Shown: positions 23,179 through 51,235 of the stretch, piece by piece
Layout: every line of letters starts with the position of its first letter
How positions within the stretch are numbered: the first letter of the stretch is position 1
Assembly: GCA_964637105.1 (NCBI GenBank)
Contig: CAZWVY010000003.1
Span: 373 to 64,372 of the forward strand
DNA: 64,000 bases
Source of the DNA: an uncultured Sangeribacter sp.
GTDB taxonomy: Bacteria > Bacteroidota > Bacteroidia > Bacteroidales > Muribaculaceae
Direction: 5' to 3'
Program-made: the position numbers and the translations under genes
The notes under the pieces: generated by a model
The model's input: only the letters and a program-made list of their open reading frames with translations
Told to the model about the DNA's origin: nothing
Database searches by the model: none

Positions 23179-23228
23179 CCGTCCCGGAGGGGTGGCACAA
23201 AGATCTTTGTGCCACCCCTCCGGGACGG
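23179..23228. repeat. Perfect 50-bp palindrome: doublet of 17-bp GGA-loop hairpins (family A, REPIN-like); may also act as a bidirectional terminator
   Basis: CCGTCCCGGAGGGGTGGCACAAAGA|TCTTTGTGCCACCCCTCCGGGACGG; imperfect outer arms extend it to about 23159-23248. Confidence 0.85.
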
Positions 23229-23263
23229 AGTCCTATATTACCCTCCCCACAAATCAGAGGGCC

Positions 23264-23806
23264 TTACAGCTCCATTTCATCAAAGCCTTCGGGAAGCTCG
23301 TCATCATTATACTGGCTGTCTCCGAAAAAATCCTCATCAAGGTCGGTAGCAACTCTTTTAGCCGCCTCGTCAAGCTTCGAATCGAACTCCTCTATATCCA
23401 TTGACTGGCGCGGAGGATTGCCCCGCTTAAGCGTGCATACGGGCTCATGCAGCGTTCGGCCCGGGATTTCCTCCTTCATCTCCATGAAGAAAGAGCGCTC
23501 CGTCAGATAGTCGAACACGAACATGAGCTTCTGGCCCTCCTCTTCAATCATCTCATCAAGGGGCGTATCTTCCATCAGCCACAGGTCGCGGTCGCTTGAG
23601 GTGTCGCCCATATCTTCCAGTGTGATTTCTTCGTGCACCCCCCAGTCATCGTCACAAAGGAAGAAAGAGTTCATCTCGTCCTTAGTGTAACCCACGCTGT
23701 CGAGCACGGCATTGCGCAGGTCAAGGAAGGATGCCGAAGCATCAATCTCAATCTCACGCGCGAAGTTGCTCACTTCGTCGCTGACCAGTTTAAATCTGTA
23801 AACCAT
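23264..23806 (-). CDS. pRiA4b ORF3 / IS1096 passenger TnpR-like family protein
   Basis: Motifs MVYRFKLVSDEV..REIEID, SFFLCDDDW and VFDYLTERSFF, with an acidic tail; recalled as a conserved Bacteroidales gene. Confidence 0.7.
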   Translation of the reverse strand: MVYRFKLVSDEVSNFAREIEIDASASFLDLRNAVLDSVGYTKDEMNSFFLCDDDWGVHEEITLEDMGDTSSDRDLWLMEDTPLDEMIEEEGQKLMFVFDYLTERSFFMEMKEEIPGRTLHEPVCTLKRGNPPRQSMDIEEFDSKLDEAAKRVATDLDEDFFGDSQYNDDELPEGFDEMEL

Positions 23807-24097
23807 CTGTATATGAGTATGTTTAGTTTCGTATTGCAGTTAGACAACAGTTTCGGATGCGAATTTATAACATTTACATCAATCTTGCAAGCTATACCGC
23901 AAAAAAAGTACTGCGCCTCTTTGACGCACCTCTTTTCCACACTGTTCCACTCCCCAAGATGCAGCCTGTAACATATTACAAATCGAGTGCATTATAATGT
24001 GGCTGCCTGTTATCCGCAAAGAAAAATGTAATAAATCCGATTCATGATTTGCATATTAACCGTATTTTTCGTACCTTAGTGCGATAAAAAGATTTCT

Positions 24098-24979
24098 ATG
24101 GAAGAATTGACCAGCTTCATTAACCTTCAAACCGACTTCGGTTTCAAGAAAATCTTCGGCACCCCCGAGAATAAAAATATTCTCATCAGATTTCTGAATG
24201 CTCTGCTTGGAGACCAAGTGGTGACTGAGGTAATATATCACGATAAAGAGATGCTTCCTGCGTCTGAACAAGGGAAACGTATCGTCTATGACATTTACTG
24301 CACAAGTCAGGACGAGACGCATCACTTCATCCTGGAGATGCAGAATATATACGAATCACCTTTTGAGGACAGAATTCTATACTATACTGCCAAGGCTATA
24401 GCAAGTCAAGGCAAATCCGGATGGAAATATCGATTGAAGCCCGTAATTTCAATCGTGGTTACGGACTTTGATTTCGGGCACATGAAGAAAGCTTTAGTCC
24501 ATGATGTGCGGGTCGCTGATATCACAAGTGGCGATGTCTTGACAGATAAAATGCGAATCATGCTGTTATCCTTGAAACAAATTGGGGAAAAAACCTGGAG
24601 AGAATGCAAGAATGAAGTAGAACAGTTTTTATATCTGATTAAAAATATGGACAAATTGGACAAGAATTCGGAGATTTACCGCAGCAAGGCATACCAAGAG
24701 CTTTTCGATGCAGCAGAGACGGAGCATCTTGCAAAGGAAGACGTTATAGCCTATAGTCAATCGCTCCAACGCCTGCATGATTTCCAGTCAGGTCTTGCAT
24801 ATGCCAGGGAAGAATCCTTCGAAGAGGGCAGAGCAGAGGGCAGAGCAGAGGGCAGAGCGGAAGGCAGAGTAGAGGGCCTTCGGGAATCAGCAAGAAATAT
24901 GCTGAAAGCGGCTCTTGACCCAGAATTAATTCATCGGATAACCGGACTTCCGCTCGAAGATATTCTCTCCCTTAAATAA
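24098..24979 (+). CDS. Rpn family recombination-promoting nuclease / putative transposase (PD-(D/E)XK)
   Basis: Motifs DFGFKKIFG, YDIYC..HFILEMQ and RILYY, C-terminal (EGRA)n and ITGL; AT-rich. Confidence 0.9.
   Translation: MEELTSFINLQTDFGFKKIFGTPENKNILIRFLNALLGDQVVTEVIYHDKEMLPASEQGKRIVYDIYCTSQDETHHFILEMQNIYESPFEDRILYYTAKAIASQGKSGWKYRLKPVISIVVTDFDFGHMKKALVHDVRVADITSGDVLTDKMRIMLLSLKQIGEKTWRECKNEVEQFLYLIKNMDKLDKNSEIYRSKAYQELFDAAETEHLAKEDVIAYSQSLQRLHDFQSGLAYAREESFEEGRAEGRAEGRAEGRVEGLRESARNMLKAALDPELIHRITGLPLEDILSLK
24824..24877 (+). repeat. In-frame 12-bp tandem repeat (EGRA)
   Basis: GAGGGCAGAGCA occurs about 4.5 times, with drift in the later units. Confidence 0.9.
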
Positions 24980-25005
24980 CCCCTCATTTAGTGCTTCATT
25001 GAAAT

Positions 25006-27441
25006 ATGGGCATATATGAAAGGTTCGGCGAGCTTCCGGCGGCAGAAATTACGGAAGAGGTCAATGAGGCGCTGGCGCACTGTTCGCGCCTGGTGATTAC
25101 TGCGCCTCCGGGCGCCGGCAAGTCTACGCTGCTGCCCCTCACTATCTTGGAAAATCTTCCGGAAGGCAAAATTCTCATGCTCGAACCCCGCCGGATTGCT
25201 GCTCGTCAAGTTGCTTCGCGCATGGCCGATATGTTGGGTGAGAAAGTAGGTCGCACCATTGGATATCGGGTTCGATTTGATACCAAGGTCTCCCCTCTTA
25301 CCCGTATCGAGGTTATAACAGAAGGTATTCTGGAACGTATTCTGATTCAAGATCCCACCCTCGAGGGCGTGGCGGTCGTCATCTTCGATGAGTATCACGA
25401 GCGAAGCCTCTCCTCGGATCTTTCATTGGCCCTGACCCGAGAAATACAAAATGTCCTCCGGCCCGACCTCCGGATTATCATAATGTCGGCTACAATAGAT
25501 TCCGACTTGATAGCATCACGACTGGTAGCACAGCAAATCCAGAGTCCGGGCAAAAACTACGAGGTTAAAATCGAATATGGCCGTGACTACGATATCAGGG
25601 AATGTGCGGCAGAAGTTGCCGGAGTCGTTAAGAAAGCTTTACATAATCATGAAGGGAATATCCTTGCTTTCCTGCCGGGACAGGCGGAGATACTTAAATG
25701 CCGGGAGATACTTTCAGATAGATTGGAGAATGTCGAGATTCTGACACTTTACGGAATGATGCCGCCGGCTGACCAGCAAAGGGTCCTGTCTCCATCCAAA
25801 GATACGAAGCGGAGGGTCTTCCTGGCCTCTCCAATCGCCGAGACCTCACTTACCATCGAGGGCATATCCGTAGTCATTGATTCCGGACTGCACCGCACTC
25901 CGGTCTTTAACCCCTCCACTACTCTAACCCAACTGGAAACTGTCCGGATTACGATGGATATGGCTGTCCAGCGCGCCGGACGCGCCGGACGTCTGATGAA
26001 CGGCGTATGCTACCGGCTGTGGACCAAAGCGGCTGAGTCCAGAATGAAAGAGAGCCGACATCCCGAAATAGAGACTTCAGATCTCGCCTCGATGTTATTG
26101 ACTGTGGCAGCCTGGGGCGAGACCGATCCGCTGCGGCTGCCCTGGATTACCCCTCCTGCCCCCGGTCATGTGGAGAATGCCAAGAAGCTCCTCCTGGCAC
26201 TTGAAGCCATAGATAAGTCAGGAAGACTGACGGAAAAAGGTAAACGAATCGCCGCTCTCCCCTGTCATCCTCGAATCGCTAACATGCTTGCGGAAGCGGA
26301 TCACACCACTTCCCTTGCCTGTGATATAGCAGCCCTACTCGAAGAAAAAGACCCGATAAAGGATGAGACAGATGCCGATTTGACCACCCGTCTCGCCACA
26401 TTGCACCAATTTCGCAAAAGCCGCCTCTCCGGAGTGTGGAAGAGAATTGACAGCATCGCTTCCCAATACCGCCGCCTTACCCATGCATCATCACCCCCTC
26501 GCATGCTGGTGCACGAGGAAATAGGCAGACTCGTTGGTCTGGCCTTTCCGGAAAGAATCGCTATGCGCGCCGGTAACGGACAATACCGCATGGCCCAGGG
26601 AGGAAACCTCGTGTGTCTTCATCCCACGGATGACCTTGCACGGCACGAGTTTCTTGCAATAGCTTCAGTAGGAAGCCGCATCTATTTGGCAGCCCCCATA
26701 GATAAAGAATATGTCATGTCCCTGGGCAAGTGGACTGAGACAGCATCGTGGAACGCCCGCGAAGGAAAAGCAGTCGCAAGAGAAGAATTGCGGCTCGGTT
26801 CGCTGATTTTATCTACGCGCCCCTTAAAAGGGGATGCGGGCCCCCGGATTATTGCTGCTATAGCTGAAGCTGCTCCCAAAGAGGGTCTGTCAATGTTTGA
26901 TTTCAACGATGACGTTGAAGAACTTCAGCTCAGGATTCAGACCGCCTCTGCATGGCATCCGGAATTGGCTCTGCCCGATGTTTCCACCGAAGCGCTTCTT
27001 AATTCAGCGGACTCCTGGCTCCCCATGTACATAGGAAAATCCACCTCCGCCCAGGAAATGAAAAAAATAAATCTGACGAAGGTGATTCTCGGGTTGTTGA
27101 GCTATGACCAACAGCAGGCGTTGGAAAGATTAGCCCCCTCCTTTATCCTGCTCCCTTCGGGCCGACGGGCCAAGGTACGGTACAGAAAAGGAGCGGACGC
27201 ACCCGTGGTCAGTGCCCGTCTGCAAGACTGTTTTGGTATTCTGACCACTCCAATGGTTGATGGAGGAAAACGTCCCGTCCTTATGGAGCTCCTCTCACCG
27301 GGATTCAAGCCCGTGCAGCTCACACAAGACATGGAAGGGTTCTGGCAAAACACCTATCATGAAGTGCGCAAGGAGCTACGCCGCCGCTACCCTAAACACC
27401 GCTGGCCCGAAGACCCGCTCTCTTATGCCTCAGACACCTGA
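25006..27441 (+). CDS. hrpB: ATP-dependent DEAH-box helicase HrpB
   Basis: Motifs APPGAGKST, LEPRRIAAR, DEYHERS, MSAT, QRAGRAGR and the HrpB C-terminal signature QLTQD...FW...Y.EVRKELRRRYPKHRWP. Confidence 0.95.
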   Translation: MGIYERFGELPAAEITEEVNEALAHCSRLVITAPPGAGKSTLLPLTILENLPEGKILMLEPRRIAARQVASRMADMLGEKVGRTIGYRVRFDTKVSPLTRIEVITEGILERILIQDPTLEGVAVVIFDEYHERSLSSDLSLALTREIQNVLRPDLRIIIMSATIDSDLIASRLVAQQIQSPGKNYEVKIEYGRDYDIRECAAEVAGVVKKALHNHEGNILAFLPGQAEILKCREILSDRLENVEILTLYGMMPPADQQRVLSPSKDTKRRVFLASPIAETSLTIEGISVVIDSGLHRTPVFNPSTTLTQLETVRITMDMAVQRAGRAGRLMNGVCYRLWTKAAESRMKESRHPEIETSDLASMLLTVAAWGETDPLRLPWITPPAPGHVENAKKLLLALEAIDKSGRLTEKGKRIAALPCHPRIANMLAEADHTTSLACDIAALLEEKDPIKDETDADLTTRLATLHQFRKSRLSGVWKRIDSIASQYRRLTHASSPPRMLVHEEIGRLVGLAFPERIAMRAGNGQYRMAQGGNLVCLHPTDDLARHEFLAIASVGSRIYLAAPIDKEYVMSLGKWTETASWNAREGKAVAREELRLGSLILSTRPLKGDAGPRIIAAIAEAAPKEGLSMFDFNDDVEELQLRIQTASAWHPELALPDVSTEALLNSADSWLPMYIGKSTSAQEMKKINLTKVILGLLSYDQQQALERLAPSFILLPSGRRAKVRYRKGADAPVVSARLQDCFGILTTPMVDGGKRPVLMELLSPGFKPVQLTQDMEGFWQNTYHEVRKELRRRYPKHRWPEDPLSYASDT

Positions 27442-27478
27442 GACCCCGTCTCATATGATTTTTATGTCTCAGGGGTCT
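27441..27478. repeat. Palindromic intergenic repeat, family B copy 3
   Basis: AGACCCCGTCTCATATGATTTTTATGTCTCAGGGGTCT, directly at the hrpB stop. Confidence 0.8.
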
Positions 27479-27560
27479 AAGTCATCACTCACTGACTTAT
27501 ATCTCTCTGAACGTAGCCCTTCATTTCCGAAAAAAATTTGCATAATCGGAAATTAGTTAC

Positions 27561-27568
27561 TACTTTTG
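27561..27568 (+). promoter_or_regulatory. -7 element for the AAA/DUF234 gene, overlapping the 70-bp palindrome
   Basis: TACTTTTG, with TTTG at 27536-27539. Confidence 0.6.
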
Positions 27569-27631
27569 CGTTCCGACACAGCCGTTTCCGACACAGCTGT
27601 GTCGGAAACGGCTGTGTCGGAACGCAAAAGT
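27562..27631. repeat. Perfect 70-bp palindrome with internal direct repeats
   Basis: ACTTTTGCGTTCCGACACAGCCGTTTCCGACACAG|CTGTGTCGGAAACGGCTGTGTCGGAACGCAAAAGT: 35+35 bp, no loop and no mismatch. Confidence 0.92.
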
Positions 27632-27639
27632 CAACAAAT

Positions 27640-28959
27640 ATGAAGTTTTTTGATAGAGAGAAAGAAACCGGGATACTGCAGGAAGTAAAGAATCTCAGTC
27701 ATGAAAATGCGCAATTTACTGTACTGACCGGACGTCGCCGCGTCGGCAAGACATGGCTCGTCACTCACGCGTATCCCCAAGACGATTTACTATACTTTTT
27801 TGTGGCAAGAAAATCTGAAACCGAATTATGCAAAGGCTATGCAAAGGAAATAGAGGCAAAACTCCATGTCCCACTGCTTGGTGCTCCTGAAAGCTTTGCA
27901 GAAATCTTTGAGTTCCTGATGAAATATTCCCAAAACCATCCGATAACATTATTTATCGATGAGTTTCAAGATTTTTTAAGAGTAAATAAATCCATCTTCA
28001 GCGACATGCAACGGATATGGGATCTTTATAAAGAAAATTCTAAGATGAACCTGATTGCAGGCGGTTCGATATATACCTTGCTGTCTAAAATCTTCAGGGA
28101 TCAAAAAGAACCTCTCTACGGTCGCCAGACAAGATTTCTGAACATAAAACCCTTTAAAACTGCCGTTATCAAAAACATCCTGAACGCCTATAATCAAAGT
28201 TATAAGCCCGATGACCTTCTTACACTATACATGTTGACCGGAGGTGTGGCAAAATATGTCAGTTCATTGATGGACACAAATGCCGTCACTTCGGAAGCGA
28301 TGATTGAACGTGCGCTCTCAGAAGATTCACCTTTCATATTGGAAGGAAAAAACCTTCTGCTCGAGGAATTCGGGAAGGATTCATCTGTCTACTTTTCCAT
28401 ACTGAGCGCAATCGCATCCGGACGCAACACACGCAATGAGATAGAGACAGCCGTGGGAAAAGAAGTAGGCGGATACCTGTCTAAACTTGAAGAAGATTAT
28501 AACCTGATTACCAAATATCTGCCCGTATTGACCCCCAATTCATCAAAGAATGTGCACTACGAACTTGACGATATGTTTTTCAAATTCTGGTTCCGTTTTG
28601 TATACAAGTATAATTACATGCTTGAGATTGGGAAATATGACAAACTAAGGGAATTGGTAATGCGTGATTATAAGACATACAGTGGCCATGTTTTGGAAAG
28701 GTATTTCCAAAACAAACTTGCGGAGGAGGCTGACATCACGCGCCTTGGAAACTGGTGGGATCGTAAAGGAGAGAATGAAATAGACATAATAACGGAAAAT
28801 GAACTTGTCGGCAAACTTGTATTCTATGAAGTGAAAAGGCAGAAAGAGAATATCTCTATAGGTGAACTAAAAAAGAAAGCCGAAGCCTTCTTCACTAAAA
28901 ATAAGATATCAAGTAAGTATGATGTCGAATACAAAGGGTTGACATTAGAAGACATGTAA
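27640..28959 (+). CDS. AAA ATPase (archaeal ATPase / ATPase_2 type) with C-terminal DUF234 restriction-endonuclease-like domain
   Basis: MKFFDRE, Walker A GRRRVGKT, Walker B LFIDEFQ, TGGVAKY and C-terminal WW..KGENEIDI..FYEVK. Start moved from 27538 to 27640. Confidence 0.88.
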   Translation: MKFFDREKETGILQEVKNLSHENAQFTVLTGRRRVGKTWLVTHAYPQDDLLYFFVARKSETELCKGYAKEIEAKLHVPLLGAPESFAEIFEFLMKYSQNHPITLFIDEFQDFLRVNKSIFSDMQRIWDLYKENSKMNLIAGGSIYTLLSKIFRDQKEPLYGRQTRFLNIKPFKTAVIKNILNAYNQSYKPDDLLTLYMLTGGVAKYVSSLMDTNAVTSEAMIERALSEDSPFILEGKNLLLEEFGKDSSVYFSILSAIASGRNTRNEIETAVGKEVGGYLSKLEEDYNLITKYLPVLTPNSSKNVHYELDDMFFKFWFRFVYKYNYMLEIGKYDKLRELVMRDYKTYSGHVLERYFQNKLAEEADITRLGNWWDRKGENEIDIITENELVGKLVFYEVKRQKENISIGELKKKAEAFFTKNKISSKYDVEYKGLTLEDM

Positions 28960-28970
28960 AATGGTAAAAT

Positions 28971-29008
28971 AAAAAGGATGCTGTCCATGCATGGACAGTA
29001 TCCTTTTT
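28971..29008. terminator. Bidirectional intrinsic terminator between the ATPase gene and dnaK
   Basis: AAAAAGGATGCTGTCCATG|CATGGACAGTATCCTTTTT, with one G-T pair. Confidence 0.85.
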
Positions 29009-29031
29009 TACTATTTAGATTTTATAATGTA

Positions 29032-30933
<1,902 letters not shown>

Positions 30934-31149
30934 GGTTTCTATAAATTTAATGTTATGTTTTTACGGTTTATGTTTTTCAGAGTATCGGGAATCTGTACTT
31001 GCGGTTCTCGAATCTCGGTTATTTTCTCTCTTCTGCTTTATTAACAAATAGCGTGCGAAATGTTTCACTCCCTGCGCCAAAAAGCAGACGATATTAACAT
31101 ATATTACTGTATATCTGAATATTAAAATAATATTACAAATTTATTCAAG

Positions 31150-31169
31150 TTTTGACAAATCTGTCAAAA
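31150..31169. promoter_or_regulatory. Candidate operator in the divergent dnaK/spt region
   Basis: TTTTGACA-aatc-TGTCAAAA, with perfect 8-bp arms. Confidence 0.35.
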
Positions 31170-31340
31170 ATCGTCTGCTGAATGTCACTGTATGCCGGGC
31201 TGTAGCATAATTTATTGCAGGATATTTGCATATATCGCCAAAAAATTAGTAAATTTGCAGTCTACTTCCACCTCGTGCCCGGCAAAGTCTCTGCGCCGGG
31301 TGCGGAAACGCAGTTTTGTACAAACCGCACAGTATAACAT

Positions 31341-32528
31341 ATGAAGCTTCTACAAGAAAAACTGGGCCGTTACGATGCCCCTCAGAAAGCTAAGGCCGCA
31401 GGAATCTATCCCTATTTCCGCCCGATTTCGAGCGAACAGAATACTGAGGTGATGATGAACGGCAAGAAAGTGCTCATGTTCGGCTCCAACAGCTACATGG
31501 GCCTCACCAACCATCCCAAGGTAATTGAGGCCGCTATCGAGGCCACCAAAAAATATGGCACCGGCATGGCCGGTTCCCCCTTCCTCAACGGCACCCTTGA
31601 CATCCACAAGGAGTTCGAGGCCCGCATAGCCGACTATGTCGGCAAGGAGGATGCGATGCTCTATTCCACCGGCTTCGGAGTTAACCTCGGAGTCGTCTCC
31701 ACCCTCACAGGCCGCGAGGACTATGTCATACTCGACGAGCAGGACCATGCCTCTATCATAGAAGGCCGACGCCTCTCATTCTCCAATTATCTGAAATATA
31801 AGCACAACGATATGGAGTCGCTTGAGAACCAGCTCAAGAAATGCGACCCCGACAAGGTTAAGCTTATTGTCAGTGACTCCGTTTTCTCTATGGAGGGCGA
31901 TGTGGCCAACATTCCCGAAATCGTGCGCCTGGCCAAGAAATACAATGCCTCTATAATGATTGACGAGGCACACGGCATCGGCGTATTCGGAAAGGGTGGC
32001 CGCGGAGTGGTCAACCACTACGGCCTCCAGGACGATGTTGACCTCATCATGGGCACATTCTCGAAGTCCTTTGCCTCCCTGGGCGGATTCATTGCCACCG
32101 ATAAGGAAATCACTAATTTCCTGCGCCATCACTCGCGCTCATATATCTTCACGGCAAGCATCACCCCTGCCTCCACCGCAGCCGCCAATGCGGCGATGGA
32201 CATCATGCTCGCAGAGCCCGAACGCCAGGAGCACCTTTGGGAAATCACCAACTACGCCCTGGAGTCCTTCCGCAACATGGGCTGCGAGATAGGCCATACC
32301 TCCACTCCCATCATTCCCCTCTTCATACGCGATGACTACAAGACCTTCCACGTCACTCACGACCTGCTCGAAGAGGGAGTCTTCGTAAATCCTGTCGTCA
32401 CCCCCGCCGTGGCCCCGCAGGACACCCTCATCCGCTACTCCCTCATGGCCACTCACACCAAAGAGCAGGTGACACGCTCGCTCGAGGCCATTGAGAAGGT
32501 GTTCCGCAAACATGGAGTGCTGAAATGA
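31341..32528 (+). CDS. spt: Serine palmitoyltransferase (alpha-oxoamine synthase family)
   Basis: Motifs YPYFR, FGSNSYMGL, DHASII, DEAHG and GTFSKS (PLP Lys); closely resembles the Bacteroides Spt as I recall it. Confidence 0.85.
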   Translation: MKLLQEKLGRYDAPQKAKAAGIYPYFRPISSEQNTEVMMNGKKVLMFGSNSYMGLTNHPKVIEAAIEATKKYGTGMAGSPFLNGTLDIHKEFEARIADYVGKEDAMLYSTGFGVNLGVVSTLTGREDYVILDEQDHASIIEGRRLSFSNYLKYKHNDMESLENQLKKCDPDKVKLIVSDSVFSMEGDVANIPEIVRLAKKYNASIMIDEAHGIGVFGKGGRGVVNHYGLQDDVDLIMGTFSKSFASLGGFIATDKEITNFLRHHSRSYIFTASITPASTAAANAAMDIMLAEPERQEHLWEITNYALESFRNMGCEIGHTSTPIIPLFIRDDYKTFHVTHDLLEEGVFVNPVVTPAVAPQDTLIRYSLMATHTKEQVTRSLEAIEKVFRKHGVLK

Positions 32529-39785: not shown

Positions 39786-39790
39786 ACGCG

Positions 39791-40755: not shown

Positions 40756-40763
40756 TAACTTTG
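40756..40763 (+). promoter_or_regulatory. -7 element for bamD-rpoZ
   Basis: TAACTTTG. Confidence 0.6.
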
Positions 40764-40809
40764 CACGTTAGAAATGTCACTAACGGCAGAAATGCCATAT
40801 CCGGCAATT

Positions 40810-41625: not shown

Positions 41626-41737
41626 CCTCCTCCTCCGGCTCTCGCTTCCCACCCGGCACAATCCCCTCTCCGCAAGCATCTCGCCGGCCTGTCCCGACAG
41701 ATAACTCAGAGTAAAAACAAAGAAAAACCAATATAAA

Positions 41738-42073: not shown

Positions 42074-42149
42074 TACTGTCCGCGAGGTCTCTCTCAACGG
42101 CTAATCACGCCCTGAGACCTCCTCTCCGGGCTCTCCCCCCGCCCCGACG

Positions 42150-43148
42150 ATGAGCATTACGCTTCACATATTTAATCCGGATACCGACTATGCGCTGGCA
42201 TCCGGATCAACTTTTTATACCCCTCCCGCCAAAATAAAGGCCATGCGGGCCTCCATGGCCCTGCTCCCTGCGAGATGGGCGCGCCCCGGCGAGGCTATCC
42301 TGCTGCTTGATGACCCCTCCGTACCCGTTGAGACACTCCGTGACTACGAAACAGCGGTAAACAAGTGTCTCACTATTGTCACCCCTCACTCACAGACACA
42401 TGCCCGTACCGGGGAGGCCGCGTCCGCGCACTTCAGGGAGTTCAAGCCCGTTCCGTGGGGTTGGAATCCTGCCCTGCGCCATTATTTAGCGGAAATAGGC
42501 ATCCCCGAAGAGAAGATGCCCTCAGTATCTGATGTGGCCACCATCCGCCTCCTCTCCCACAGACGCACCGCTTCACAGATAAACACCCTCTTGGGTTCAC
42601 CGCATATTGCAGCCGAGCTTAAGAGCCTCGAGGAAGTTGAGGCATTCACAGCGAGAAATCCTCGGGCATGGCTCAAGGCCCCTTGGAGCAGCTCGGGACG
42701 CGGCGTAATCAATTGCGCCGACCTGGAGCCGCGCCATATCATCCCCTGGGCGCGCGGGATTATCCGGCGCCAGGGGAGCGTTATGGCCGAGACACCGGCT
42801 GACCGCATCCTCGACTTCGCTACCGAATGGACATGCCATGACGGGATGGCCGATTTTGAGGGATTCTCCGTCTTCTCCACCTCCTCCCGAGGGAAATACC
42901 ACGGAAATCTTGAACTGCCGCAGTCAGAGCTGGAGAAGGTTATAAAAAACGCTGTCCCTGCTTGGGACAGCGAAATAATAGAGAGGCAGAAGGAAGCATT
43001 GGAAGCCATAGTGGCAGGGCATTACTCCGGGCCGGCCGGAATTGACATGATAGCGGAGCGCGACGGCTCCCTGCGCCCCTGTATAGAGCTGAACCTGAGA
43101 ATGACCATGGGCTTTGCTACCCTCCTCACCAATCGTCCTCCCAAATGA
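42150..43148 (+). CDS. Hypothetical protein with ATP-grasp-like motifs
   Basis: Motifs WLKAPWSSSGRGV, DFATE and GPAGIDM...IELNLRMTMG. Confidence 0.7.
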   Translation: MSITLHIFNPDTDYALASGSTFYTPPAKIKAMRASMALLPARWARPGEAILLLDDPSVPVETLRDYETAVNKCLTIVTPHSQTHARTGEAASAHFREFKPVPWGWNPALRHYLAEIGIPEEKMPSVSDVATIRLLSHRRTASQINTLLGSPHIAAELKSLEEVEAFTARNPRAWLKAPWSSSGRGVINCADLEPRHIIPWARGIIRRQGSVMAETPADRILDFATEWTCHDGMADFEGFSVFSTSSRGKYHGNLELPQSELEKVIKNAVPAWDSEIIERQKEALEAIVAGHYSGPAGIDMIAERDGSLRPCIELNLRMTMGFATLLTNRPPK

Positions 43149-43186
43149 AGCGACAAATAATAGGTGATGTAAAATGGCCCCGGAGG

Positions 43187-43768
43187 TCAGAAGGCCTTGA
43201 GCTCCTTGTAGAGTCGCTGCACCGGGAGTCCCATCACGTTATAGAAGCTGCCGTTGATCCCCTCGACAGCCGCACACCCTATCCACTCCTGTATGCCATA
43301 GGCCCCGGCCTTGTCCAAAGGCCGGTAATGCGTCACATAAAAGCGCGCCTCCTCCTCAGAGAGGGGACCGAAAGTGACATCTGTGCTCACAGAGAAATCC
43401 AGGCTCCTCTCCTTTGTGGTGACTGACACTCCGGTCACAACCTGGTGCGTGCGCCCCTGCAGGGTCATGAGCATCTGCACGGCCTGCTCCTCATCGAAGG
43501 GCTTGCCATAAATCACGTTGTCAAGTATCACTACGGTGTCAGCGGTTATGACCAGCTCGTTATCCTTTATCAAGTCGCGGCATGCCATCGCCTTCTTTCT
43601 CGCAAGATAGCCCGGCACATCTACTGCGTCCATCTCCTGCGGAAAACTTTCATCGACGCCTGTCAGCCGCACGGTTTCAAAGGGAATGTCGAGCATTCCC
43701 ATCAGTTCGCGGCGGCGTGGCGACTGGCTCGCTAAGAGCACTCTGTATTTTTTTATATTATCCAGCAT
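43187..43768 (-). CDS. maf: Maf-family nucleotide pyrophosphatase
   Basis: Motifs LASQSPRRREL, ITADTVV, DKAGAYGIQ and GSFYNVMGLP. Start set at MLDNIKKY. Confidence 0.93.
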   Translation of the reverse strand: MLDNIKKYRVLLASQSPRRRELMGMLDIPFETVRLTGVDESFPQEMDAVDVPGYLARKKAMACRDLIKDNELVITADTVVILDNVIYGKPFDEEQAVQMLMTLQGRTHQVVTGVSVTTKERSLDFSVSTDVTFGPLSEEEARFYVTHYRPLDKAGAYGIQEWIGCAAVEGINGSFYNVMGLPVQRLYKELKAF

Positions 43769-43872
43769 AATCAAAATTTTAGTCAGTTTATATTCCCGGT
43801 ACATCGGCAATTAATACTCGCTATCGGCTAATATTACTCGAATAACCGCTTATATCACTGTAGTTTTGGCCT

Positions 43873-44388
43873 TTACCAGCCGAAGGCCTTCTCATTGCCG
43901 AGCCAATGGCCCTGCGCTTTGAGTATCTGCTCGAGTATGTCGCGTGCGGCCCCGTACCCTCCGCCGAAACGGGAAATGTATACCGCCGTCTCCCTGGCTT
44001 CGGCAGCGGCATCATGAGGAGCGCAGGGGAGGCCGACGAAGCGCATGCACCTCAGGTCGGGAATGTCATCGCCCATGTAGGCCACCTCCTCCGGCTCCAG
44101 TCTCACGCCTCCCATCCACTCCTGCAGCACCGGAAGCTTGTGGGCTGCTCCTTGATATATGTCCATAATGCCCAATGCCTCGAAACGTTTGCGCACAGCC
44201 TCGCTCCGGCCTCCGGTGATTATGGCTATGCGCAGTCCACACTTCACGGCCAGCTGCAACGCGTAGCCATCTTTGATATTGACCATGCGACAGGGCATCC
44301 CGTCCTCCCCCAATGGAATGGTTGAAGGCGAAAGCACTCCGTCTACATCAAATACCACCCCCCGAATTTTTTTCAAATCATAATTCAT
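43873..44388 (-). CDS. kdsC: KDO 8-phosphate phosphatase (HAD family)
   Basis: Motifs FDVDGVL, KDGYAL, ITGG, MGDDIPD and GGYGAARDILE. Confidence 0.9.
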   Translation of the reverse strand: MNYDLKKIRGVVFDVDGVLSPSTIPLGEDGMPCRMVNIKDGYALQLAVKCGLRIAIITGGRSEAVRKRFEALGIMDIYQGAAHKLPVLQEWMGGVRLEPEEVAYMGDDIPDLRCMRFVGLPCAPHDAAAEARETAVYISRFGGGYGAARDILEQILKAQGHWLGNEKAFGW

Positions 44389-44477
44389 ATCACCTCATTC
44401 TTTATGACCCAGTATTTTTTAAATCATAATTAACAGCTCCTCATTAAGTGCCCCGGCTCATGGAATTGGATAGGTTC

Positions 44478-45215
44478 TTATTTCGTGTTATCCTTGGCAT
44501 TAATTATGACCTGCGAAAGCAGCCTGTACACCTCGGCTTCCAGAGGGCGTTCCTTTAGCTCCTCCTCCTGGCGGGCCATCACATTAAAATCGCCGCGCAC
44601 GGCCGGCCCGGTCTGCGCCTCAGCCGGACTCATCTCCTCCAATTTAGCTGCCGTCTCCCCTATCAAAGGGAGCAGGTCTTGGATGCAGTATCCCTCCTCC
44701 TTTAAAATATCATCGGCAATCCCCCACAGGGCGTTTGCGAAATTACATGCGAACACTGCGCCGAGATGCAACACCCCCCTTCGTCTTGAGTCGGCGACCT
44801 TTATCTTGCCGCTGACCAGCCGGGCCGTGTCAATGAGCATGCTCTCAGTGGCCGCGCAATCCCCCTCGATGAAAAAAGGGATGTCGGAGTAATCGAGCGC
44901 GCGACCTTTGGAGAAGGTCTGCATAGGATAAATGACCCCCTTAGGACCGGGCCACGCCTCCAATGCGTCAATCGGCACGCTCCCCGATGTGTGCGCGAGC
45001 ACCGGGACCTTCCCGGCTCTCTCAGGGAGGGCTGCGGCAAACCGTCCGGCCACTTCGGCAATAGCGGAATCGCTGACGGCGATTATGATGAGATCCGCGT
45101 TTGCGGGAAGCTCAGCTTCCCGCAAACGCGGATCAATCTCTATCATATCCGTGACGGCGGAGAACGCCTTCGCCAGATGGCTCCCTACGTTTCCGCGTCC
45201 GGCTATGGCTATCAT
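44478..45215 (-). CDS. Rossmann-like and DUF2520 domain protein
   Basis: Motifs GRGNVG, HTSGS, YPMQTFSK, LHLGAVFACNF and QTGPAVRGD. Confidence 0.88.
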   Translation of the reverse strand: MIAIAGRGNVGSHLAKAFSAVTDMIEIDPRLREAELPANADLIIIAVSDSAIAEVAGRFAAALPERAGKVPVLAHTSGSVPIDALEAWPGPKGVIYPMQTFSKGRALDYSDIPFFIEGDCAATESMLIDTARLVSGKIKVADSRRRGVLHLGAVFACNFANALWGIADDILKEEGYCIQDLLPLIGETAAKLEEMSPAEAQTGPAVRGDFNVMARQEEELKERPLEAEVYRLLSQVIINAKDNTK

Positions 45216-46252
45216 CAGAGTTCAGTGCTCTCGGAGGCTGCGGGGAGCACGACCGGAGCAAGGTTCTGGTTGGCCTGATACTGGTATTTGGCCTCCCAGC
45301 CCAGGGCGCTCGCGCCGAGCACTGCGGCATCGCTCTCCTTGAGTTCGGAAATAAGTATCTTGATTTTCCCCTTGTAGACGGGGAACAGGGCGTTGTCGAA
45401 GGCCTCGCGCATGGGCTTCATCAGCAGGTCGCCGCTCTTGGCCAGGCCGCCGAAGAGGATGATGGCTTGAGGCGATGAGAAGGCGCACATGTCTGCGCAG
45501 GCCTCGCCGAGAATCTTGCCGGTATAGTCGAAAATCTCCTTGGCCAGTTTGTCGCCGGCTACGGCTGCGTCATACACATCCTTGGAGGTGATGGCCTCGA
45601 TGTCGAGGTTGCGGAGCATGGAGGGCTCAGTGCGGATCTCGAGGAATTCGCGGGCCGTGCGGGCCACGCCCGTGGCAGAGGCGTATGCCTCCAGGCAGCC
45701 GGTGCGTCCGCAGCCGCAGACACGCCCGTTGTTGCGCTTCACCACTAAGTGGCCCAGCTCGCCGGCGTTGCCGTCATGGCCGTATACCATCTGGCCGTTG
45801 ACCACGATGCCCGAGCCTACGCCCGTGCCGAGAGTGATCATGATGAAATCCTTCATGCCTCGGGCAGCGCCGTAGGTCATCTCGCCTAATGCAGCTGCGT
45901 TGGCGTCGTTGGTCACAGCCACCGGCAGCCCGTCGAAGGCCTTGCTGACTTTCTCCGCCAGGGGGATGATGGGACCCCAGGGGAGGTTTGGCGGATTCAC
46001 GATCTCGCCCGTGTAGTAGTTGGCGTTAGGAGCACCGATACCGATGCCCTTGATTTTGCCTTCGGCATCGTTGGCCTGCAGCAGACGGGTCACTTCCGTG
46101 TGGAGCTCTTCGACATAGTCGTCGAAGTTGGCATGCTTCTTGGTCTTGATCGAGCCGCTGGCCACCACCTGGCCGCGCGCGTCGACTATTCCGAAGACCG
46201 TGTTGGTGCCTCCGACATCGACACCCAATACATAAGGTTTTGTCATGGTCAT
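45215..46252 (-). CDS. ROK family sugar kinase (glucokinase-like)
   Basis: Motifs GVDVGGT, NDANAAALGE, TLGTGVGSG, GELGH and CGCGRTGCLE. Confidence 0.93.
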   Translation of the reverse strand: MTMTKPYVLGVDVGGTNTVFGIVDARGQVVASGSIKTKKHANFDDYVEELHTEVTRLLQANDAEGKIKGIGIGAPNANYYTGEIVNPPNLPWGPIIPLAEKVSKAFDGLPVAVTNDANAAALGEMTYGAARGMKDFIMITLGTGVGSGIVVNGQMVYGHDGNAGELGHLVVKRNNGRVCGCGRTGCLEAYASATGVARTAREFLEIRTEPSMLRNLDIEAITSKDVYDAAVAGDKLAKEIFDYTGKILGEACADMCAFSSPQAIILFGGLAKSGDLLMKPMREAFDNALFPVYKGKIKILISELKESDAAVLGASALGWEAKYQYQANQNLAPVVLPAASESTEL

Positions 46253-46510
46253 ATCTACTTTATGATATATAATATGTGTTTTTGCCCGAATTTGATTTTA
46301 AGGCTAACATCACGTCCGGTCGCCTTCCGATAAGGAACCCGGCCGCGCATGCCGCGCAATCTTCAAATTGATTCTGCAAATATAACAAAATAAAATCAAA
46401 CCAATCAAATTTTCTTTTGTTAAATATATAGAAATTACTTATGGAAAACGCCGCGGTCCCCTCCCGGCCCCTCCGGGCTTGACACGGGTGCCGCTCATAA
46501 AGTAGGTTTT

Positions 46511-49111
46511 ATGAACTTCAACAACTTCACAATTAAATCGCAGGAGGTTGTGCAGAAGGCTATCGAGCTTTGCCGGTCAAACGGCCAGCAGCTCATTGAG
46601 CCGGCCCACCTGCTTAAGGCCCTCATCGACGAGGCCGAGACCATCGTGAACTTCGTGTTCCAGAAGCTCGGCGCCAATCTCAATGCCGTCAAGACGGGCC
46701 TTGACCGCGACATCGCGGCCCTCCCCAAGGTCTCCGGAGGGGATGTGACCCTCAGCCGCGAGGCCAACGAAGCCCTGCAGAAGGCAGTGGATTTCTCCAA
46801 GTCAATGGGCGATGAGTATGTATCTGTAGAGGCCATGCTCATGGGCATTCTCAAGACCCGCTGCTCCGCTTCGCGCATCCTCAAGGATGCCGGAATCACC
46901 GAGGATGGCCTCAAGGCCGCTATCCAGGAGCTCCGAAAGGGCAACAAGGTGACACAGCAGAGCGCCGAGGAGTCATACCAGGCTCTTTCTAAATATGCCA
47001 TCAACCTCAATGACCGCGCCCGCAGCGGCAAGCTCGACCCGGTCATCGGCCGTGACGAGGAGATACGCCGCGTGCTCCAGATCCTTTCGCGTCGCACCAA
47101 GAACAATCCTATGCTCGTCGGCGAGCCCGGCACCGGTAAGACAGCCATCGCCGAGGGCCTGGCCCACCGTATCGTGCGCGGCGATGTGCCCGAGAACCTT
47201 AAGTCAAAACAGATTTACTCGCTCGATATGGGCGCACTCGTGGCCGGAGCGAAATACAAGGGCGAGTTTGAGGAGCGCCTCAAGGCTATCGTAAATGAGG
47301 TAACCCAGTCTGACGGCGAGATCATCCTCTTTATCGATGAGATCCACACTCTTGTAGGCGCCGGCAAGGGCGAGGGAGCTATGGATGCAGCCAATATCCT
47401 CAAGCCGGCGCTGGCGCGCGGCGAACTCCGCTCTATCGGCGCCACCACCCTCGACGAGTATCAGAAATATTTCGAGAAGGATAAGGCCCTCGAGCGCCGC
47501 TTCCAGAAGGTGATGGTCGATGAGCCTGACGAGATGTCTGCCATCTCCATCCTCCGCGGCCTCAAGGAGCGTTATGAAAACCATCACAAGGTGCGCATCA
47601 TGGATGAGGCTATCATAGCCGCCGTCCAGCTCTCTGTGCGCTACATCACAGACCGCTTCCTCCCCGACAAGGCTATCGACCTTATTGATGAGGCCGCTTC
47701 CAAGCTCCGCCTCGAGATGGACTCAATGCCCCAGGCCCTCGATGAGGCGCAACGCAAGATTGCGCAGCTCGAAATCGAGCGCGAGGCTCTTAAGCGTGAG
47801 GGCAACGACTACAAGATCAAGGAAATCGATGAGGACCTCGCCAACCTGCGCGACACCGAGAAGGCCATGAAGGCCAAGTGGCAGGCTGAGAAAAACGAGA
47901 TCAATAAGATTCAGCAGAACAAGATTGAAATTGAGCAGCTCAAGCATGAGGCCGAGATGGCCAAGCGCGAGGGTGACTATGCCAAGGTGGCTGAGATAGA
48001 ATACTCCAAGATCAAGCAGAAAGAGACTGAGAACGCCGAAATCCAGGAGCGCCTCAAGCAGCTCCAGGGCGAGGGCGCCATGATCAAGGAGGAGGTCGAT
48101 GCCGAGGATATCGCCGAGGTTGTCAGCCGCTGGACCGGAATACCTGTCAAGAAGATGGCCCAGAGCGAGAAGGAGAAACTGCTCCATCTCGAGGAGGAGC
48201 TCCACAAGCGCGTGGTCGGCCAGGATGCGGCCATCAAGGCAGTCAGCGACGCAGTGCGCCGCTCGCGCGCAGGCCTCAATGACCCGCGCCGCCCCTTAGG
48301 CTCGTTCATCTTCCTCGGCACCACCGGTGTCGGCAAGACGGAGCTCGCCAAGGCCCTCGCAGAATACCTCTTCGATGACGAGGATATGATGACCCGTATC
48401 GATATGTCAGAATACATGGAGAAGCACTCCGTGAGCCGACTGGTAGGAGCGCCTCCGGGATACGTCGGATACGAGGAGGGTGGCCAGCTCACTGAGGCAG
48501 TGCGCCGCAAACCTTACAGCGTCGTGCTCTTCGATGAGATAGAGAAGGCTAACCCGGATGTGTTCAACATCCTGCTGCAGGTGCTTGATGACGGCCGCCT
48601 CACAGACAACAAGGGCCGCTTCATCAACTTCAAGAACACCATTATTATCATGACCTCCAATGAGGGATCGCCCATTATCCGCGAGAACTTCAAGGACATC
48701 GACTCCAAGACTGAGGAGGAGCGTGAGAATGTCATCTCGAAGACCAAAGAGGATGTGCTCGACCTTCTGAAAATGAAGATCCGTCCCGAATTCCTCAACC
48801 GTATCGATGAGATTGTGATGTTCACACCTCTCAACAAGAAGGAGATTCAGGAGATTGTCGACATCCAGGTGAAGAGCGTCCAGAAGATGCTCGCCTCCAA
48901 CGGCGTAGAGCTTAAGATCACTAAACCTGCTCTTGAGCTCCTGGCTGAAGACGGCTACGATCCCGAATTCGGTGCACGTCCCGTGAAGCGCACCATCCAG
49001 CGCATGGTGCTCAACCAGCTCTCGAAGGACATCCTGGCGCAGAAGGTAGACCGCGACCATCCCATCGTCATCGATCGCGAAGGCGACGAACTGGTCTTCA
49101 AGAACCACTAA
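46511..49111 (+). CDS. clpB: Disaggregase ClpB
   Basis: Two AAA modules ([16 protein letters not shown]), a coiled-coil M domain and [12 protein letters not shown]. Confidence 0.97.
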
Positions 49112-49134
49112 ACCCTGAAATAATTATCAATACC

Positions 49135-49166
49135 AAATGGTCGGCCCCGCACGGAGCCGACCATTT
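49135..49166 (+). terminator. Probable terminator hairpin after clpB
   Basis: AAATGGTCGGC...GCCGACCATTT, followed by T. Confidence 0.6.
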
Positions 49167-49209
49167 TCCGCTTGTGCCGTCCCATATGCCCCCCTCATTG
49201 ATGAACCTT

Positions 49210-49378
49210 GCGGGCTGGAAGCCCGCCCTCCTTGACCACTCCCGCAATAGCACAAGGACTACCCAAGGACTGTCCAAGGACTGCGGGCTTCCAGCCCGCA
49301 ATAGCTTCCAGCCCGCAATAGCACAAGGACTGCGGGCTTCCAGCCCGCAATAGCTTCAGCCCGCACTCCTTGTGCTAC
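49210..49378. repeat. REP/BIME-like mosaic (family A, GCGGGCT-GGA-AGCCCGC)
   Basis: Full hairpins at 49210-49226, 49283-49299 and 49332-49348, plus half copies. CAAGGACT occurs 4 times and CCCGCAATAGC 4 times. A 20-bp IR (19/20) pairs 49319-49338 with 49358-49377. Confidence 0.88.
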
Positions 49379-49392
49379 TGCAGCCCCTCGTC

Positions 49393-49434
49393 ATAAAAAA
49401 GCGGGGCATCCGTTTGGATGCCCCGCTTTTTTAT
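49393..49434. terminator. Bidirectional intrinsic terminator
   Basis: ATAAAAAAGCGGGGCATCC-gttt-GGATGCCCCGCTTTTTTAT. Confidence 0.9.
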
Positions 49435-49460
49435 TGTGGGATTGTTGTCTCAGAGATGGA

Positions 49461-50618
49461 TTACTTCACGACCTTGACAGCCTTGCCGTTCTGCACGCGG
49501 ATGTACATTCCCTTCTCGGGGTTAGCCACGCGTACGCCCTGCATGTTGAAGTAAACAGCCTCGCCGTTGGCAGCTGCGATTACGTTGATGCCAGTCTCTA
49601 CGTCGATGACGCGGATTTCGTTGGTAGCGCAGTTGAACTCTACGTTATACTCGCTGTTCTCAGTAGCGCCATCGATTGTCATGTTAGCATCCCAGTTGTC
49701 GGGGATAGCATAGAACTCCTGAGTCTGGAGAGCCTGGCCGTTGGAGTGCCATACATCAGCTGCGCCGTTCCAAACCTTTACCTTGAAGCCGCTGGTGCCG
49801 ATGGGAAGTGACTCGTGCATGGATACACCCTCCTCATTGGGGTTGACACCATTGTCAAGCCAGTTGTTGAAGTCGCCGAGCACGTTTACATACCATGTGG
49901 TGTAGTCGGTCTCGATTATCTGGCCGCCCTCACCTGTGATAGTGAGCTCTGCAGTGTCGAGGTTGAAAGTAAGAACAGCGTTCTCAACATTCATACCCAT
50001 TGCCATGTTGTTGCTATTGTTATAGTAGCAGACATAGGGAGTGTTCAGTTCCATGGCATTGATACCGGAGCTGTAGTTTACGTCAGCCCAGTCAGCATCA
50101 GCAATCTTGAACTCCTGACCGGCAACGAGGTTAGCGACTTTAAGCTCGAACACATTGTTACCCTTGTCAGTAAACTTGTACTCATCTGTTGCACCCCAGC
50201 CGTTCATTGCGCCGCGGAGGTACATGACAGTCTCTGTGGGAGGAACAACGATTTCGCCGCCGAGACCGTTTACGGTCAGCAGATTGTTGTTGGTGTCGAG
50301 AGTGAAAGTCACATTGGTCACCTCCTCAGTGAAACGGAAGTTCTGACCGTCCTGACGCAGACCGTAGTCACCGTTCTCTGTGATGTTTTTGATGCCGCTT
50401 GCGTCAGCGCCGAGGTTAGTTGTCCAGCCTGCATCCTTACGGAACTTAAACTGACCCTTGAGGGATTCCATGGTAACAGTGAACACGCCGGACTCAGTCT
50501 CGGTCATGTCAACATCACCTGCCCAGCTGTTGAACTCGCCGATGACACCCCATCCGGCGTTTGCGCTACCTGCGGTCAGGAAGAGACCGGCAGCGAGTGC
50601 GAGTAAACCTTTCTTCAT
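49461..50618 (-). CDS. Secreted protein with three SusE/F-like carbohydrate-binding repeats and a T9SS-type C-terminal domain
   Basis: Sec signal peptide; three G-x-(F/M)-N-x-W repeats with FK(F/I/V) strands; tail TGI...YFNMQGVRVANPEKGMYIRVQNGKAVKVVK. Confidence 0.7.
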   Translation of the reverse strand: MKKGLLALAAGLFLTAGSANAGWGVIGEFNSWAGDVDMTETESGVFTVTMESLKGQFKFRKDAGWTTNLGADASGIKNITENGDYGLRQDGQNFRFTEEVTNVTFTLDTNNNLLTVNGLGGEIVVPPTETVMYLRGAMNGWGATDEYKFTDKGNNVFELKVANLVAGQEFKIADADWADVNYSSGINAMELNTPYVCYYNNSNNMAMGMNVENAVLTFNLDTAELTITGEGGQIIETDYTTWYVNVLGDFNNWLDNGVNPNEEGVSMHESLPIGTSGFKVKVWNGAADVWHSNGQALQTQEFYAIPDNWDANMTIDGATENSEYNVEFNCATNEIRVIDVETGINVIAAANGEAVYFNMQGVRVANPEKGMYIRVQNGKAVKVVK

Positions 50619-50784
50619 GATAAGATTACTTTTGTGTTAAAAAATATGGTTAATTATAAAGTATTTGTTTGCCTGTAAAAAAGATGAATCTCTTTGCGTA
50701 CTGTTTTTTAGTTAAGCCTTTTAATTCATTCCTTTTCTTGTCACATTGAATCCCTCCGGCCCGTCGGCCTTCCGGATTCGGTAG

Positions 50785-50792
50785 CAAAGGTA
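50785..50792 (-). promoter_or_regulatory. -7 element for the triple-CBM gene
   Basis: TACCTTTG on the minus strand, about 165 nt above the ATG. Confidence 0.6.
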
Positions 50793-50860
50793 ATATCTTT
50801 TTACGAAATAATGGTTATAATTTTTTAAAATTAACTTTTATTAACAATTAGGAGGGGCTT

Positions 50861-51235
50861 AGAAGTGGCGGAGGCGCAGCAGTGGCGGAGGCTTTCTTGC
50901 CTCCGCGTGCAGGAGTGGAGTGGATGGTGATGCAGACCTGTAAGTTCCTGCGGGTCTCTGACCCGCAGTTCCAATAAACACCCTCAGAGGATGATGAAGT
51001 CGTGCGCTGAGAATTAGGGCTGCGGGTCAGAGACCCGCAGGAACTTACAGTACGGCGACACCATCAGGGAAATATTAAGGAGGCTGGAAGCCTCCTCTAC
51101 TTTTGCGGAGGCTGGAAGCCTCCTCTACTTTTGCGGAGGCTGGAAGCCTCCTCTACTTTTGCGGAGGCTGGAAAGCCTCCTCTACTTTTGCGGAGGCTGG
51201 AAAGCCTCCGCCACTGTTGCGCCTCCGCCACTTCT
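50861..51235. repeat. Nested REP/REPIN-like composite element (375 bp)
   Basis: Outer 36-bp IR (50861-50896 / 51200-51235, 35/36 match); inner perfect 31-bp IR (50938-50968 / 51020-51050); 28-29 bp tandem array from 51079. Confidence 0.9.
51079..51209. repeat. Tandem array GGAGGCTGG(A)AAGCCTCCTCTACTTTTGC, 4 units plus a partial
   Basis: Units at 51079, 51107 and 51135 (28 bp), 51163 (29 bp), and a partial at 51192. Confidence 0.95.

Follow-up and report, generated by a model that had tools for sequence, protein, structure and literature searches.

Two clusters of REP-like hairpins on either side of a starch-binding protein gene in a mouse-gut Muribaculaceae genome

A stretch of 64 kb from contig CAZWVY010000003.1 of an uncultured Sangeribacter sp. 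(Muribaculaceae), here called the window, carries two compact groups of GC-rich hairpins, E1 (49208-49381) and E2 (50861-51235), in the intergenic regions on either side of a single gene. With a confidence a little above even, we read E1 and E2 as clusters of repetitive extragenic palindromic (REP) elements, that is, GC-rich stem-loops with a short 5' foot, arranged as tandem arrays and as inverted doublets resembling REPINs (REP doublets forming hairpins). In this Muribaculaceae species, the two clusters have entered two 3'-intergenic sites that are safe with respect to transcription. Tandem or slipped duplication has since enlarged both of them locally, as seen from the exact 34-nt and 28-nt repeats, the half-units and the foot-only repeats that they contain.

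The hairpins occur in three variants, V1 (GCGGGCT-GGA-AGCCCGC), V2 (GGAGGCT-GGA-AGCCTCC) and V3 (GCGGGTC-TCT/AGA-GACCCGC). A scan for perfect 7-bp stems closed by a 3-nt loop returned 15 hairpins in the 64 kb. Eight of the 15 have RGA or TCY loops, and all eight lie within 49210-51151, in two intergenic regions only, one on each side of the gene at 49461-50618 (minus strand). They are the hairpins that an earlier note on this DNA had described: V1 at 49210 and, reversed, at 49283 and 49332, V3 at 50950 and 51022, and V2 at 51079, 51107 and 51135. Two further V2 units with a GGAA loop were found at 51163 and 51190, as well as one copy that the note had not listed, with an 8-bp stem and a 6-nt loop (50885-50906). 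Measured against the stem expected of a REP (GC-rich, fully paired over at least 7 bp, loop of 2-5 nt), the two clusters contain eight perfect stems of 7-9 bp with 3-nt loops and two more with 4-nt loops. The differences between the V1, V2 and V3 stems are compensatory, as had been proposed; an alternative alignment of V2 to V1, with a 2-bp insertion in each arm (GCGG[AG]GCT...AGC[CT]CCGC), is equally good. Folding z-scores of -15.4 for E2 and -12.4 for E1 place the repeats far beyond chance.

The earlier note had extended this family over 28 kb by adding a fourth member, CCGTCCC-GGA-GGGGTGG, at 23179. This sequence had been misread as a triloop hairpin. It belongs to the 5' arm of a perfect palindrome of 50 nt (23179-23228), whose 23-bp stem is closed by a GATC loop and which has no sequence kinship with V1, V2 or V3. 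Because that member is spurious and all eight hairpins sit in 49210-51151, the feature spans about 2 kb instead of 28 kb and consists of the two adjacent clusters. Outside E1 and E2, a relaxed descriptor gave 5 matches in the window against 4.8 +/- 2.0 in shuffled sequences, which is the chance level, and the five are unrelated in sequence. When E1 and E2 were searched by BLAST against the remainder of the window, no match exceeded 13 nt. The palindrome at 23179-23228 lies between convergent open reading frames (ORFs), inside a segment of lower GC content (about 22-32 kb, 48-51% GC) that also encodes a putative transposase of the PDDEXK_2 (Rpn-like) type (24098-24979), a PRiA4_ORF3-like protein, HrpB and an ATPase_2/DUF234 protein.

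E1 lies between the ClpB gene (46511-49111, plus strand) and the gene at 49461-50618, which encodes 385 amino acids. Its V1 units have the form foot-GCGGGCT-TCC-AGCCCGC-AATAGC, and the region is organized as follows:

49135-49166: terminator of the ClpB gene.
49208-49234, minus strand: unit a, reading CAAGGAGG-GCGGGCT-TCC-AGCCCGC-AA on the minus strand, with the V1 hairpin at 49210-26.
49241-49284, plus strand: partial unit CCCGCAATAGC, then three copies of the 11-nt foot repeat CAAGGACTNNC (Tandem Repeats Finder, 49253-49284).
49275-49305, plus strand: unit b, CAAGGACT-GCGGGCT-TCC-AGCCCGC-AATAGC.
49306-49322, plus strand: half-unit, TTCC-AGCCCGC-AATAGC.
49324-49354, plus strand: unit c, an exact copy of unit b (49275-49308 = 49324-49357, 34 nt, 100%).
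49355-49381, minus strand: truncated inverted unit d, reading GCAGTAGCACAAGGAGT-GCGGGCT-GAA on the minus strand.
49393-49434, no strand assigned: bidirectional terminator hairpin located between the 385-aa gene and E1, its arms 19 bp long and bordered by A and T runs.

Units a and b form an inverted, head-to-head doublet, while unit d pairs with unit c into a second long hairpin, so that the predicted fold of E1 consists of two long hairpins. Half-units number two in this cluster. With the ClpB terminator on one side and the terminator at 49393-49434 on the other, E1 is flanked by two terminators.

E2 occupies 375 bp between the 385-aa gene and the Zn-peptidase gene (51250-52128, minus strand). 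It is a nested palindrome, whose outer arms of 46 nt are 93% complementary and whose inner arms of 53 nt are 85% complementary, with a 37-nt spacer. Each outer arm comprises two GTGGCGGAGGC half-sites and a V2-type hairpin, and each inner arm a V3 hairpin:

50861-50906, plus strand: outer-left arm, with two GTGGCGGAGGC half-sites and the hairpin GCGGAGGC-TTTCTT-GCCTCCGC.
50923-50975, plus strand: inner-left arm, with the V3 hairpin CTGCGGGTC-TCT-GACCCGCAG (50948-68).
51013-51065, minus strand: inner-right arm, with a V3 hairpin (51020-40).
51075-51189, minus strand: tandem array of four V2 units of 28-29 bp, each GTAG-A-GGAGGCT-T(T)CC-AGCCTCC-GCAAAA.
51190-51235, minus strand: outer-right arm, which is the terminal V2 unit, GTGG-CGGAGGCT-TTCC-AGCCTCCG, followed by the second GTGGCGGAGGC half-site.

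The two inner arms together make a REPIN-like doublet around the 37-nt spacer. The V2 array is placed between the inner-right and outer-right arms and has a period of 28 bp, with 5.0 copies when the terminal unit is counted. Over both clusters, five inverted-repeat pairs and the predicted folds display the inverted, clustered arrangement of REPs. The location is extragenic in both cases: E1 lies between the terminators of convergent genes, and E2, whose outer-right arm starts 14 nt past the stop codon of the Zn-peptidase gene, lies upstream of the promoter of the next gene. A 13-mer, GGATGCCCCGCTT, is present twice around E2, in the terminator 3' of the 385-aa gene (49402-49428) and at the 3' end of the Zn-peptidase gene (51292-51318). 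The two copies are 1890 bp apart and bracket the 385-aa gene and E2; their frequency is near chance for a region of 2.6 kb, and the pairing is probably a coincidence.

The sequences next to the hairpins were compared with a published REP descriptor (PMC6006769), which asks for GT[AG]G, a gap of 0-2 nt and a stem of 7 bp or longer that encloses a 2-5-nt loop. On the window it selected exactly the five V2 units (four with GTAG, one with GTGG), against 0.32 +/- 0.53 in shuffles. The minus-strand feet read as previously claimed, with GTAG-A on four V2 units, GTGG on the terminal V2 unit and GTAG at 49378-49375. At this last position the tetranucleotide is present, but it stands 10 nt away from the truncated half-hairpin. 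The GTAG/GTGG foot that the earlier note took as a sign of REPs is thus carried by the V2 units; beside the stems of V1 and V3, no GT[AG]G stands at a distance of 0-2 nt.

Two syntenic loci of sister Muribaculaceae were examined, L128 (GCA_029066815.1, 74% amino-acid identity) and L130 (79%). The order SprA, Zn-peptidase, starch-binding gene is kept in both, and synteny with ClpB is seen in L128 only. Upstream of the starch-binding gene, the spacer measures 213 bp in L128 and 328 bp in L130, against 631 bp in the window; downstream, it measures 194 bp in L128 against 349 bp. The comparison of orthologous sites suggested in the earlier note did reveal a difference in presence: L128 lacks both E1 and E2, and L130 lacks E2, its contig stopping short of the E1 site. 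E1 and E2 are therefore lineage-specific insertions. Two features locate the insertion of E2:

49461-50618, minus strand: gene flanked by E1 and E2, encoding a protein of 385 aa with a signal peptide, homologous to starch-binding proteins of the SusE/F type.
50785-50792, minus strand: -7 box TACCTTTG (TAnnTTTG) of this gene, outside E2 and present in both sister loci.

The A/T-rich region upstream of the gene is likewise conserved in all three genomes and likewise lies outside E2. Because both the box and this region are common to the three loci, E2 was inserted in the interval that separates the upstream stop codon from the promoter region. The repeat clusters are genuine: in more than 10 runs, Logan unitigs and an NCBI metagenome contig join parts of E1 or E2 to the flanking Muribaculaceae genes, all of them stopping within the repeats. 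L128 has a hairpin family of its own, GGACGYGR-N4-YCRCGTCC, at three intergenic sites in 13 kb (4881-4900, 7249-7268 and 12808-12825). One of its copies is preceded by GTAG, and one of the three sites is the position orthologous to E1, so that two lineages carry different hairpin families at the same site.

An intergenic insertion of 375 bp that is missing from sister genomes and ends in long terminal inverted repeats (46 nt, 93%) could also be a miniature inverted-repeat transposable element (MITE), moved with no RayT by a transposase of the DDE type or another that recognises terminal inverted repeats; E1 would perhaps be one too. We consider this highly unlikely, since no clear target-site duplication was found (at best GCTT near both ends), the window holds no second copy of E2, the V1, V2 and V3 motifs have no exact match in viral contigs, and the arms are themselves REP-type hairpins.

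Adjacent units of the V2 array form, on the plus strand between 51102 and 51190, three strict matches to the Bacteroidota promoter consensus TTTG-N19-21-TAnnTTTG. These three promoters in a row (TTTG-N20-TAnnTTTG) arise because the 28-bp period joins the complement of the GTAG foot to the T-rich tail of the unit. They face antisense into the Zn-peptidase gene. The window contains only four other strict matches (27537+, 31136-, 31225+, 46377-), all of them intergenic beside genes, no fewer than three being upstream of a gene in the correct orientation, while 0.27 would be expected by chance. Such sites, bounded by the 46-nt outer inverted repeats (93% identity), would be compatible with an invertible promoter switch (inverton), in which the array promoters now face away from the starch-binding gene and would drive it once inverted. 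The gene encodes a secreted or surface glycan-binding protein, and genes of this kind are the usual targets of Bacteroidales invertons. The probability of such a switch nevertheless appears very low. The starch-binding gene retains its own conserved promoter outside E2, and at the two inner inverted-repeat boundaries one contig and the unitigs of at least eight runs read through unbranched and show the orientation of the window only; for these two reasons we treat the inverton as a minor rival. Moreover, the flanking genes, annotated over 44.5-61.7 kb, include no recombinase gene, E1 is built of the same units yet has nothing to switch, and the whole element is missing in the sister genomes. 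A related idea, that selfish hairpins were turned into a phase-variation device, the V2 REP array having been co-opted as an invertible or antisense promoter switch, is in our opinion a long shot.

The GGA loops and the form of the array were also considered as signs of a functional RNA, either a sponge for a protein of the Rsm/Csr type or a stack of terminators. Four plus-strand V2 units are indeed terminator-like, the hairpin being followed by TCTACTTTTG, and Rfam returned a weak match to RsmW on the array (32.7 bits, E = 0.004). This score falls well below the gathering threshold of 52, and nothing in Rfam reached a gathering score. Relative to both neighbouring genes, the GGA strand is the antisense one; E1 has a terminator on each side, and CsrA is not known as a regulator in Bacteroidota. 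A functional RNA of this sort is extremely improbable.

We scanned a genome collection with the pattern TTGCGG-N0-2-GCTGGAAGCCYSC, which covers V1 and V2. The scan gave at least 120 loci, mostly in metagenome-assembled genomes (MAGs) of Binatia, Bdellovibrionales and similar groups; no Muribaculaceae are among the loci listed, and the scan is uninformative on Muribaculaceae. The V1 19-mer TTGCGGGCTGGAAGCCCGC is multi-copy and dispersed within single genomes, with at least 14 loci in a Bdellovibrionales MAG, at least 8 in a Binatia MAG and at least 4 in a Thermodesulfobacteriota chromosome among the matches listed. In these outside copies the foot is conserved as CTGGGAG(T) and the tail is AA; the feet in the window are CAAGGAG(T/G) or CAAGGACT. 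Between the V1 units of the window and the dispersed repeats that flank RayT genes (RayT, or RAYT, denotes the REP-associated tyrosine transposase), the 19-nt seed is identical and the foot agrees at 5 to 6 of 8 positions. With its CTGGGAG foot, TTGCGGGCTGGAAGCCCGC is a high-copy repeat common to Binatia, the Bdellovibrionales MAG, Thermodesulfobacteriota and others (L007-L126, among the matches listed), and Binatia also possess a two-hairpin composite, GCGGCCATCTTGGCCGC plus V1, closed by CTGGGAG/CTCCCAG. From these sequences, the REP hairpin appears to be conserved across phyla.

At five loci among the matches listed, an ORF with MPNHVH ... YIxNNPV motifs is found near a V1-type hairpin. The V1 hairpin or a one-base variant abuts the Y1_Tnp/RayT ORF in L011, L081, L106 and L076, and a one-base loop variant lies downstream of it in L118. 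Pfam confirmed Y1_Tnp (PF01797) for the ORFs of L081, L011 and L076, and a profile search assembled a RayT clade of more than 8000 members, many annotated as RayT. Next to the RayT gene of L076 there is in addition a GCGGGCC-AGA-GGCCCGC hairpin that differs from V3 by a single compensatory pair. In L076 (Planctomycetota MAG, JADLAK010000018.1), this gene is part of an uninterrupted ORF of 1170 aa (1103-4612, plus strand), an alanyl-tRNA synthetase into which an entire Y1_Tnp/RayT domain (residues 816-895) is inserted in frame. The insertion is located between the catalytic core and the tRNA_SAD domain, with REP hairpins at its borders; as read from the sequence, it is in effect a whole REPtron inside an essential gene.

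The earlier note regarded the hairpins as a class constrained by structure, and the outside loci bear this out. In about 1 Mb of V1-motif loci, the pattern GCGG-NNN-RGA-NNN-CCGC keeps all three inner pairs in 229 of 254 instances (90%). The paired instances fall into 14 distinct variants, a number reached by none of 2000 shuffles (0/2000). The V2 21-mer gave two matches in JGI metagenomes, both in high-GC organisms. On one contig from an unrelated metagenome (L131, 62% GC), V2 forms an inverted doublet with the AGTGGC foot seen in the outer arms of E2.

Several results weigh against reading E1 and E2 as REP clusters. Where a REP family would be expected to have tens to hundreds of dispersed copies, the 64 kb contain only two clusters, adjacent to each other, and no dispersed singletons. 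V1 (foot AGGAGT or AGGACT) and V3 lack the canonical GT[AG]G foot. V3 was found at this locus only, its apparent copies elsewhere being unitigs of the same locus, and about 60 kb of relatives' DNA, counted without redundancy, showed no V-type hairpin. A motif scan and tblastn both failed to detect a RAYT, whether in the window or in other Muribaculaceae, of which roughly 60 kb of non-redundant DNA was sampled, and all reading frames of E2, searched against 5.8 billion predicted proteins, gave no match at E <= 10. Finally, transposase-free local duplication accounts for much of the copy number here, and short GC-rich palindromes could match the REPs of other phyla partly by convergence. Among the best 120 of the more than 8000 members in the RayT profile search there were no Muribaculaceae, and a plasmid tblastn search with RayT matched Cytophagales as the only Bacteroidota.

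A rival explanation is an entirely local origin, free of any transposase. Replication slippage, together with template switching, would have built palindromes and arrays out of native sequence where the Zn-peptidase gene ends and in the interval of the convergent terminators, and the likeness of these repeats to REPs elsewhere would be a convergence of simple GC-rich hairpins. The sequence right after the Zn-peptidase stop consists of three degenerate units of 16-17 nt (AACACCGGCGGAAGC, AAGAAGTGGCGGAGGC and GCAACAGTGGCGGAGGC), and half-units, foot-only repeats, exact tandem copies and the restriction of the family to one 2-kb neighbourhood all fit this explanation. Palindrome-forming mutation is moreover at work in this genome, as shown by a 43-nt perfect palindrome in a nearby gene. 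We still judge a purely local origin unlikely. It leaves unexplained the foot, hairpin and tail matches to the RayT-flanking repeats of other phyla, the AGTGGC foot that V2 has in common with the L131 inverted doublet, and the gain of related units at two separate intergenic sites. The 43-nt palindrome itself (45092-45134, GATCCGCGTTTGCGGGAAGC-TCA-GCTTCCCGCAAACGCGGATC) is in frame inside a DUF2520 gene (44478-45215, minus strand), and the length of the protein is unchanged relative to its sister protein. Its core, TTGCGGG...CCCGCAA, resembles the base of the V1 stem, and the palindrome may result from the template-switch correction of a quasi-palindrome.

If E1 and E2 are REP clusters, their founding copies would have been made by a HUH tyrosine nuclease of the IS200/IS605 type (RayT), encoded elsewhere in this genome or since lost. 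Such an enzyme would act on DNA that is single-stranded at the replication fork, where it would recognise the folded hairpin together with its foot and would cut and rejoin the DNA. The three stem variants may represent compensatory versions of one recognised shape, and any present role, for example in termination or insulation between the Zn-peptidase and starch-binding genes, would be secondary. A spread of the hairpin family through the genome with the help of a RAYT is plausible, though not proven; the case for spread in this lineage consists only of the two lineage-specific insertions and the local tandem duplication.

Besides the Zn-peptidase and ClpB, the window encodes RuvA and SprA, a component of the type IX secretion system, and the closest named homologues of its proteins come from Muribaculaceae MAGs. 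The 385-aa protein ends in ...VYFNMQGVRV...VKVVK, which we take to resemble a C-terminal sorting domain of that system.

REP/RAYT systems are well studied in Proteobacteria, and we found no description of them in gut Bacteroidales in the literature. Should dispersed copies and a RayT be true of the complete genome, this would be a REP family of Muribaculaceae whose hairpin is base-identical to the RayT-flanking REPs of soil and aquatic phyla. This would argue either for transfer across phyla or for a very strong conservation of RayT specificity, and both outcomes contrast with the mostly vertical picture of REPIN-RAYT systems. If there are no further copies, E1 and E2 are a local repeat expansion of limited interest. 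In practical terms, short-read assemblies of this species are all interrupted at this locus by the two clusters.

Among known systems, Bacteroidales invertons share with E2 the inverted repeats around TTTG/TAnnTTTG promoter motifs beside a gene for a surface or secreted protein. E2 is set apart from them by inverted repeats of unusual length that consist of hairpins, by the absence of a recombinase gene nearby, by the single orientation seen in all assemblies and by the fixed promoter that the flanked gene has of its own. The bacterial interspersed mosaic elements of enterobacteria are likewise mosaic REP clusters of alternating orientation with short linkers at gene 3' ends; their unit sequences are different, and the 28-bp head-to-tail array described here is more regular.

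With the REP/REPIN-RAYT systems of E. coli and Pseudomonas, E1 and E2 have in common short GC-rich stem-loops, a 5' foot (GTAG/GTGG, on V2), inverted doublets folding into long hairpins, extragenic clusters at gene 3' ends, compensatory stem variants and a presence that differs between related genomes. They depart from these systems in the non-canonical feet of V1 (AGGAGT or AGGACT) and V3 (none), in the lack of a cognate RAYT in the window and the sampled relatives, and in their host, a gut Muribaculaceae. REPs typically occur in clusters and as head-to-head or tail-to-tail dimers (PMC3733652). A 2013 survey recorded GTAG REPs in Proteobacteria, Cyanobacteria, Chloroflexi and the PVC (Planctomycetes-Verrucomicrobia-Chlamydiae) group, not in Bacteroidetes (PMC3733652); Bacteroidetes do possess RAYTs, of subclasses 2.4 and 2.6 (PMC6006769).

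A further comparison is with the RayT clade bearing an N-terminal RGYLPH motif (and MPNHVH ... YIxNNP), which is accompanied by GCGGGCT-TCC-AGCCCGC REPs in MAGs of Binatia, Chloroflexota, Planctomycetota and Bdellovibrionales. There, copies are many and dispersed and a RayT gene is flanked by them, whereas here two clusters are found with no RayT in view; the foot is CTGGGAG there and CAAGGAG or CAAGGAC here. In both, however, the hairpin of 17-19 nt is identical, the AA tail is present and the foot is related. Variants with an RGA loop and a 7-bp stem co-occur in that clade as well, and so do tandem and doublet arrangements, with spacings of 63 nt in L011 and 166-182 nt in L026.

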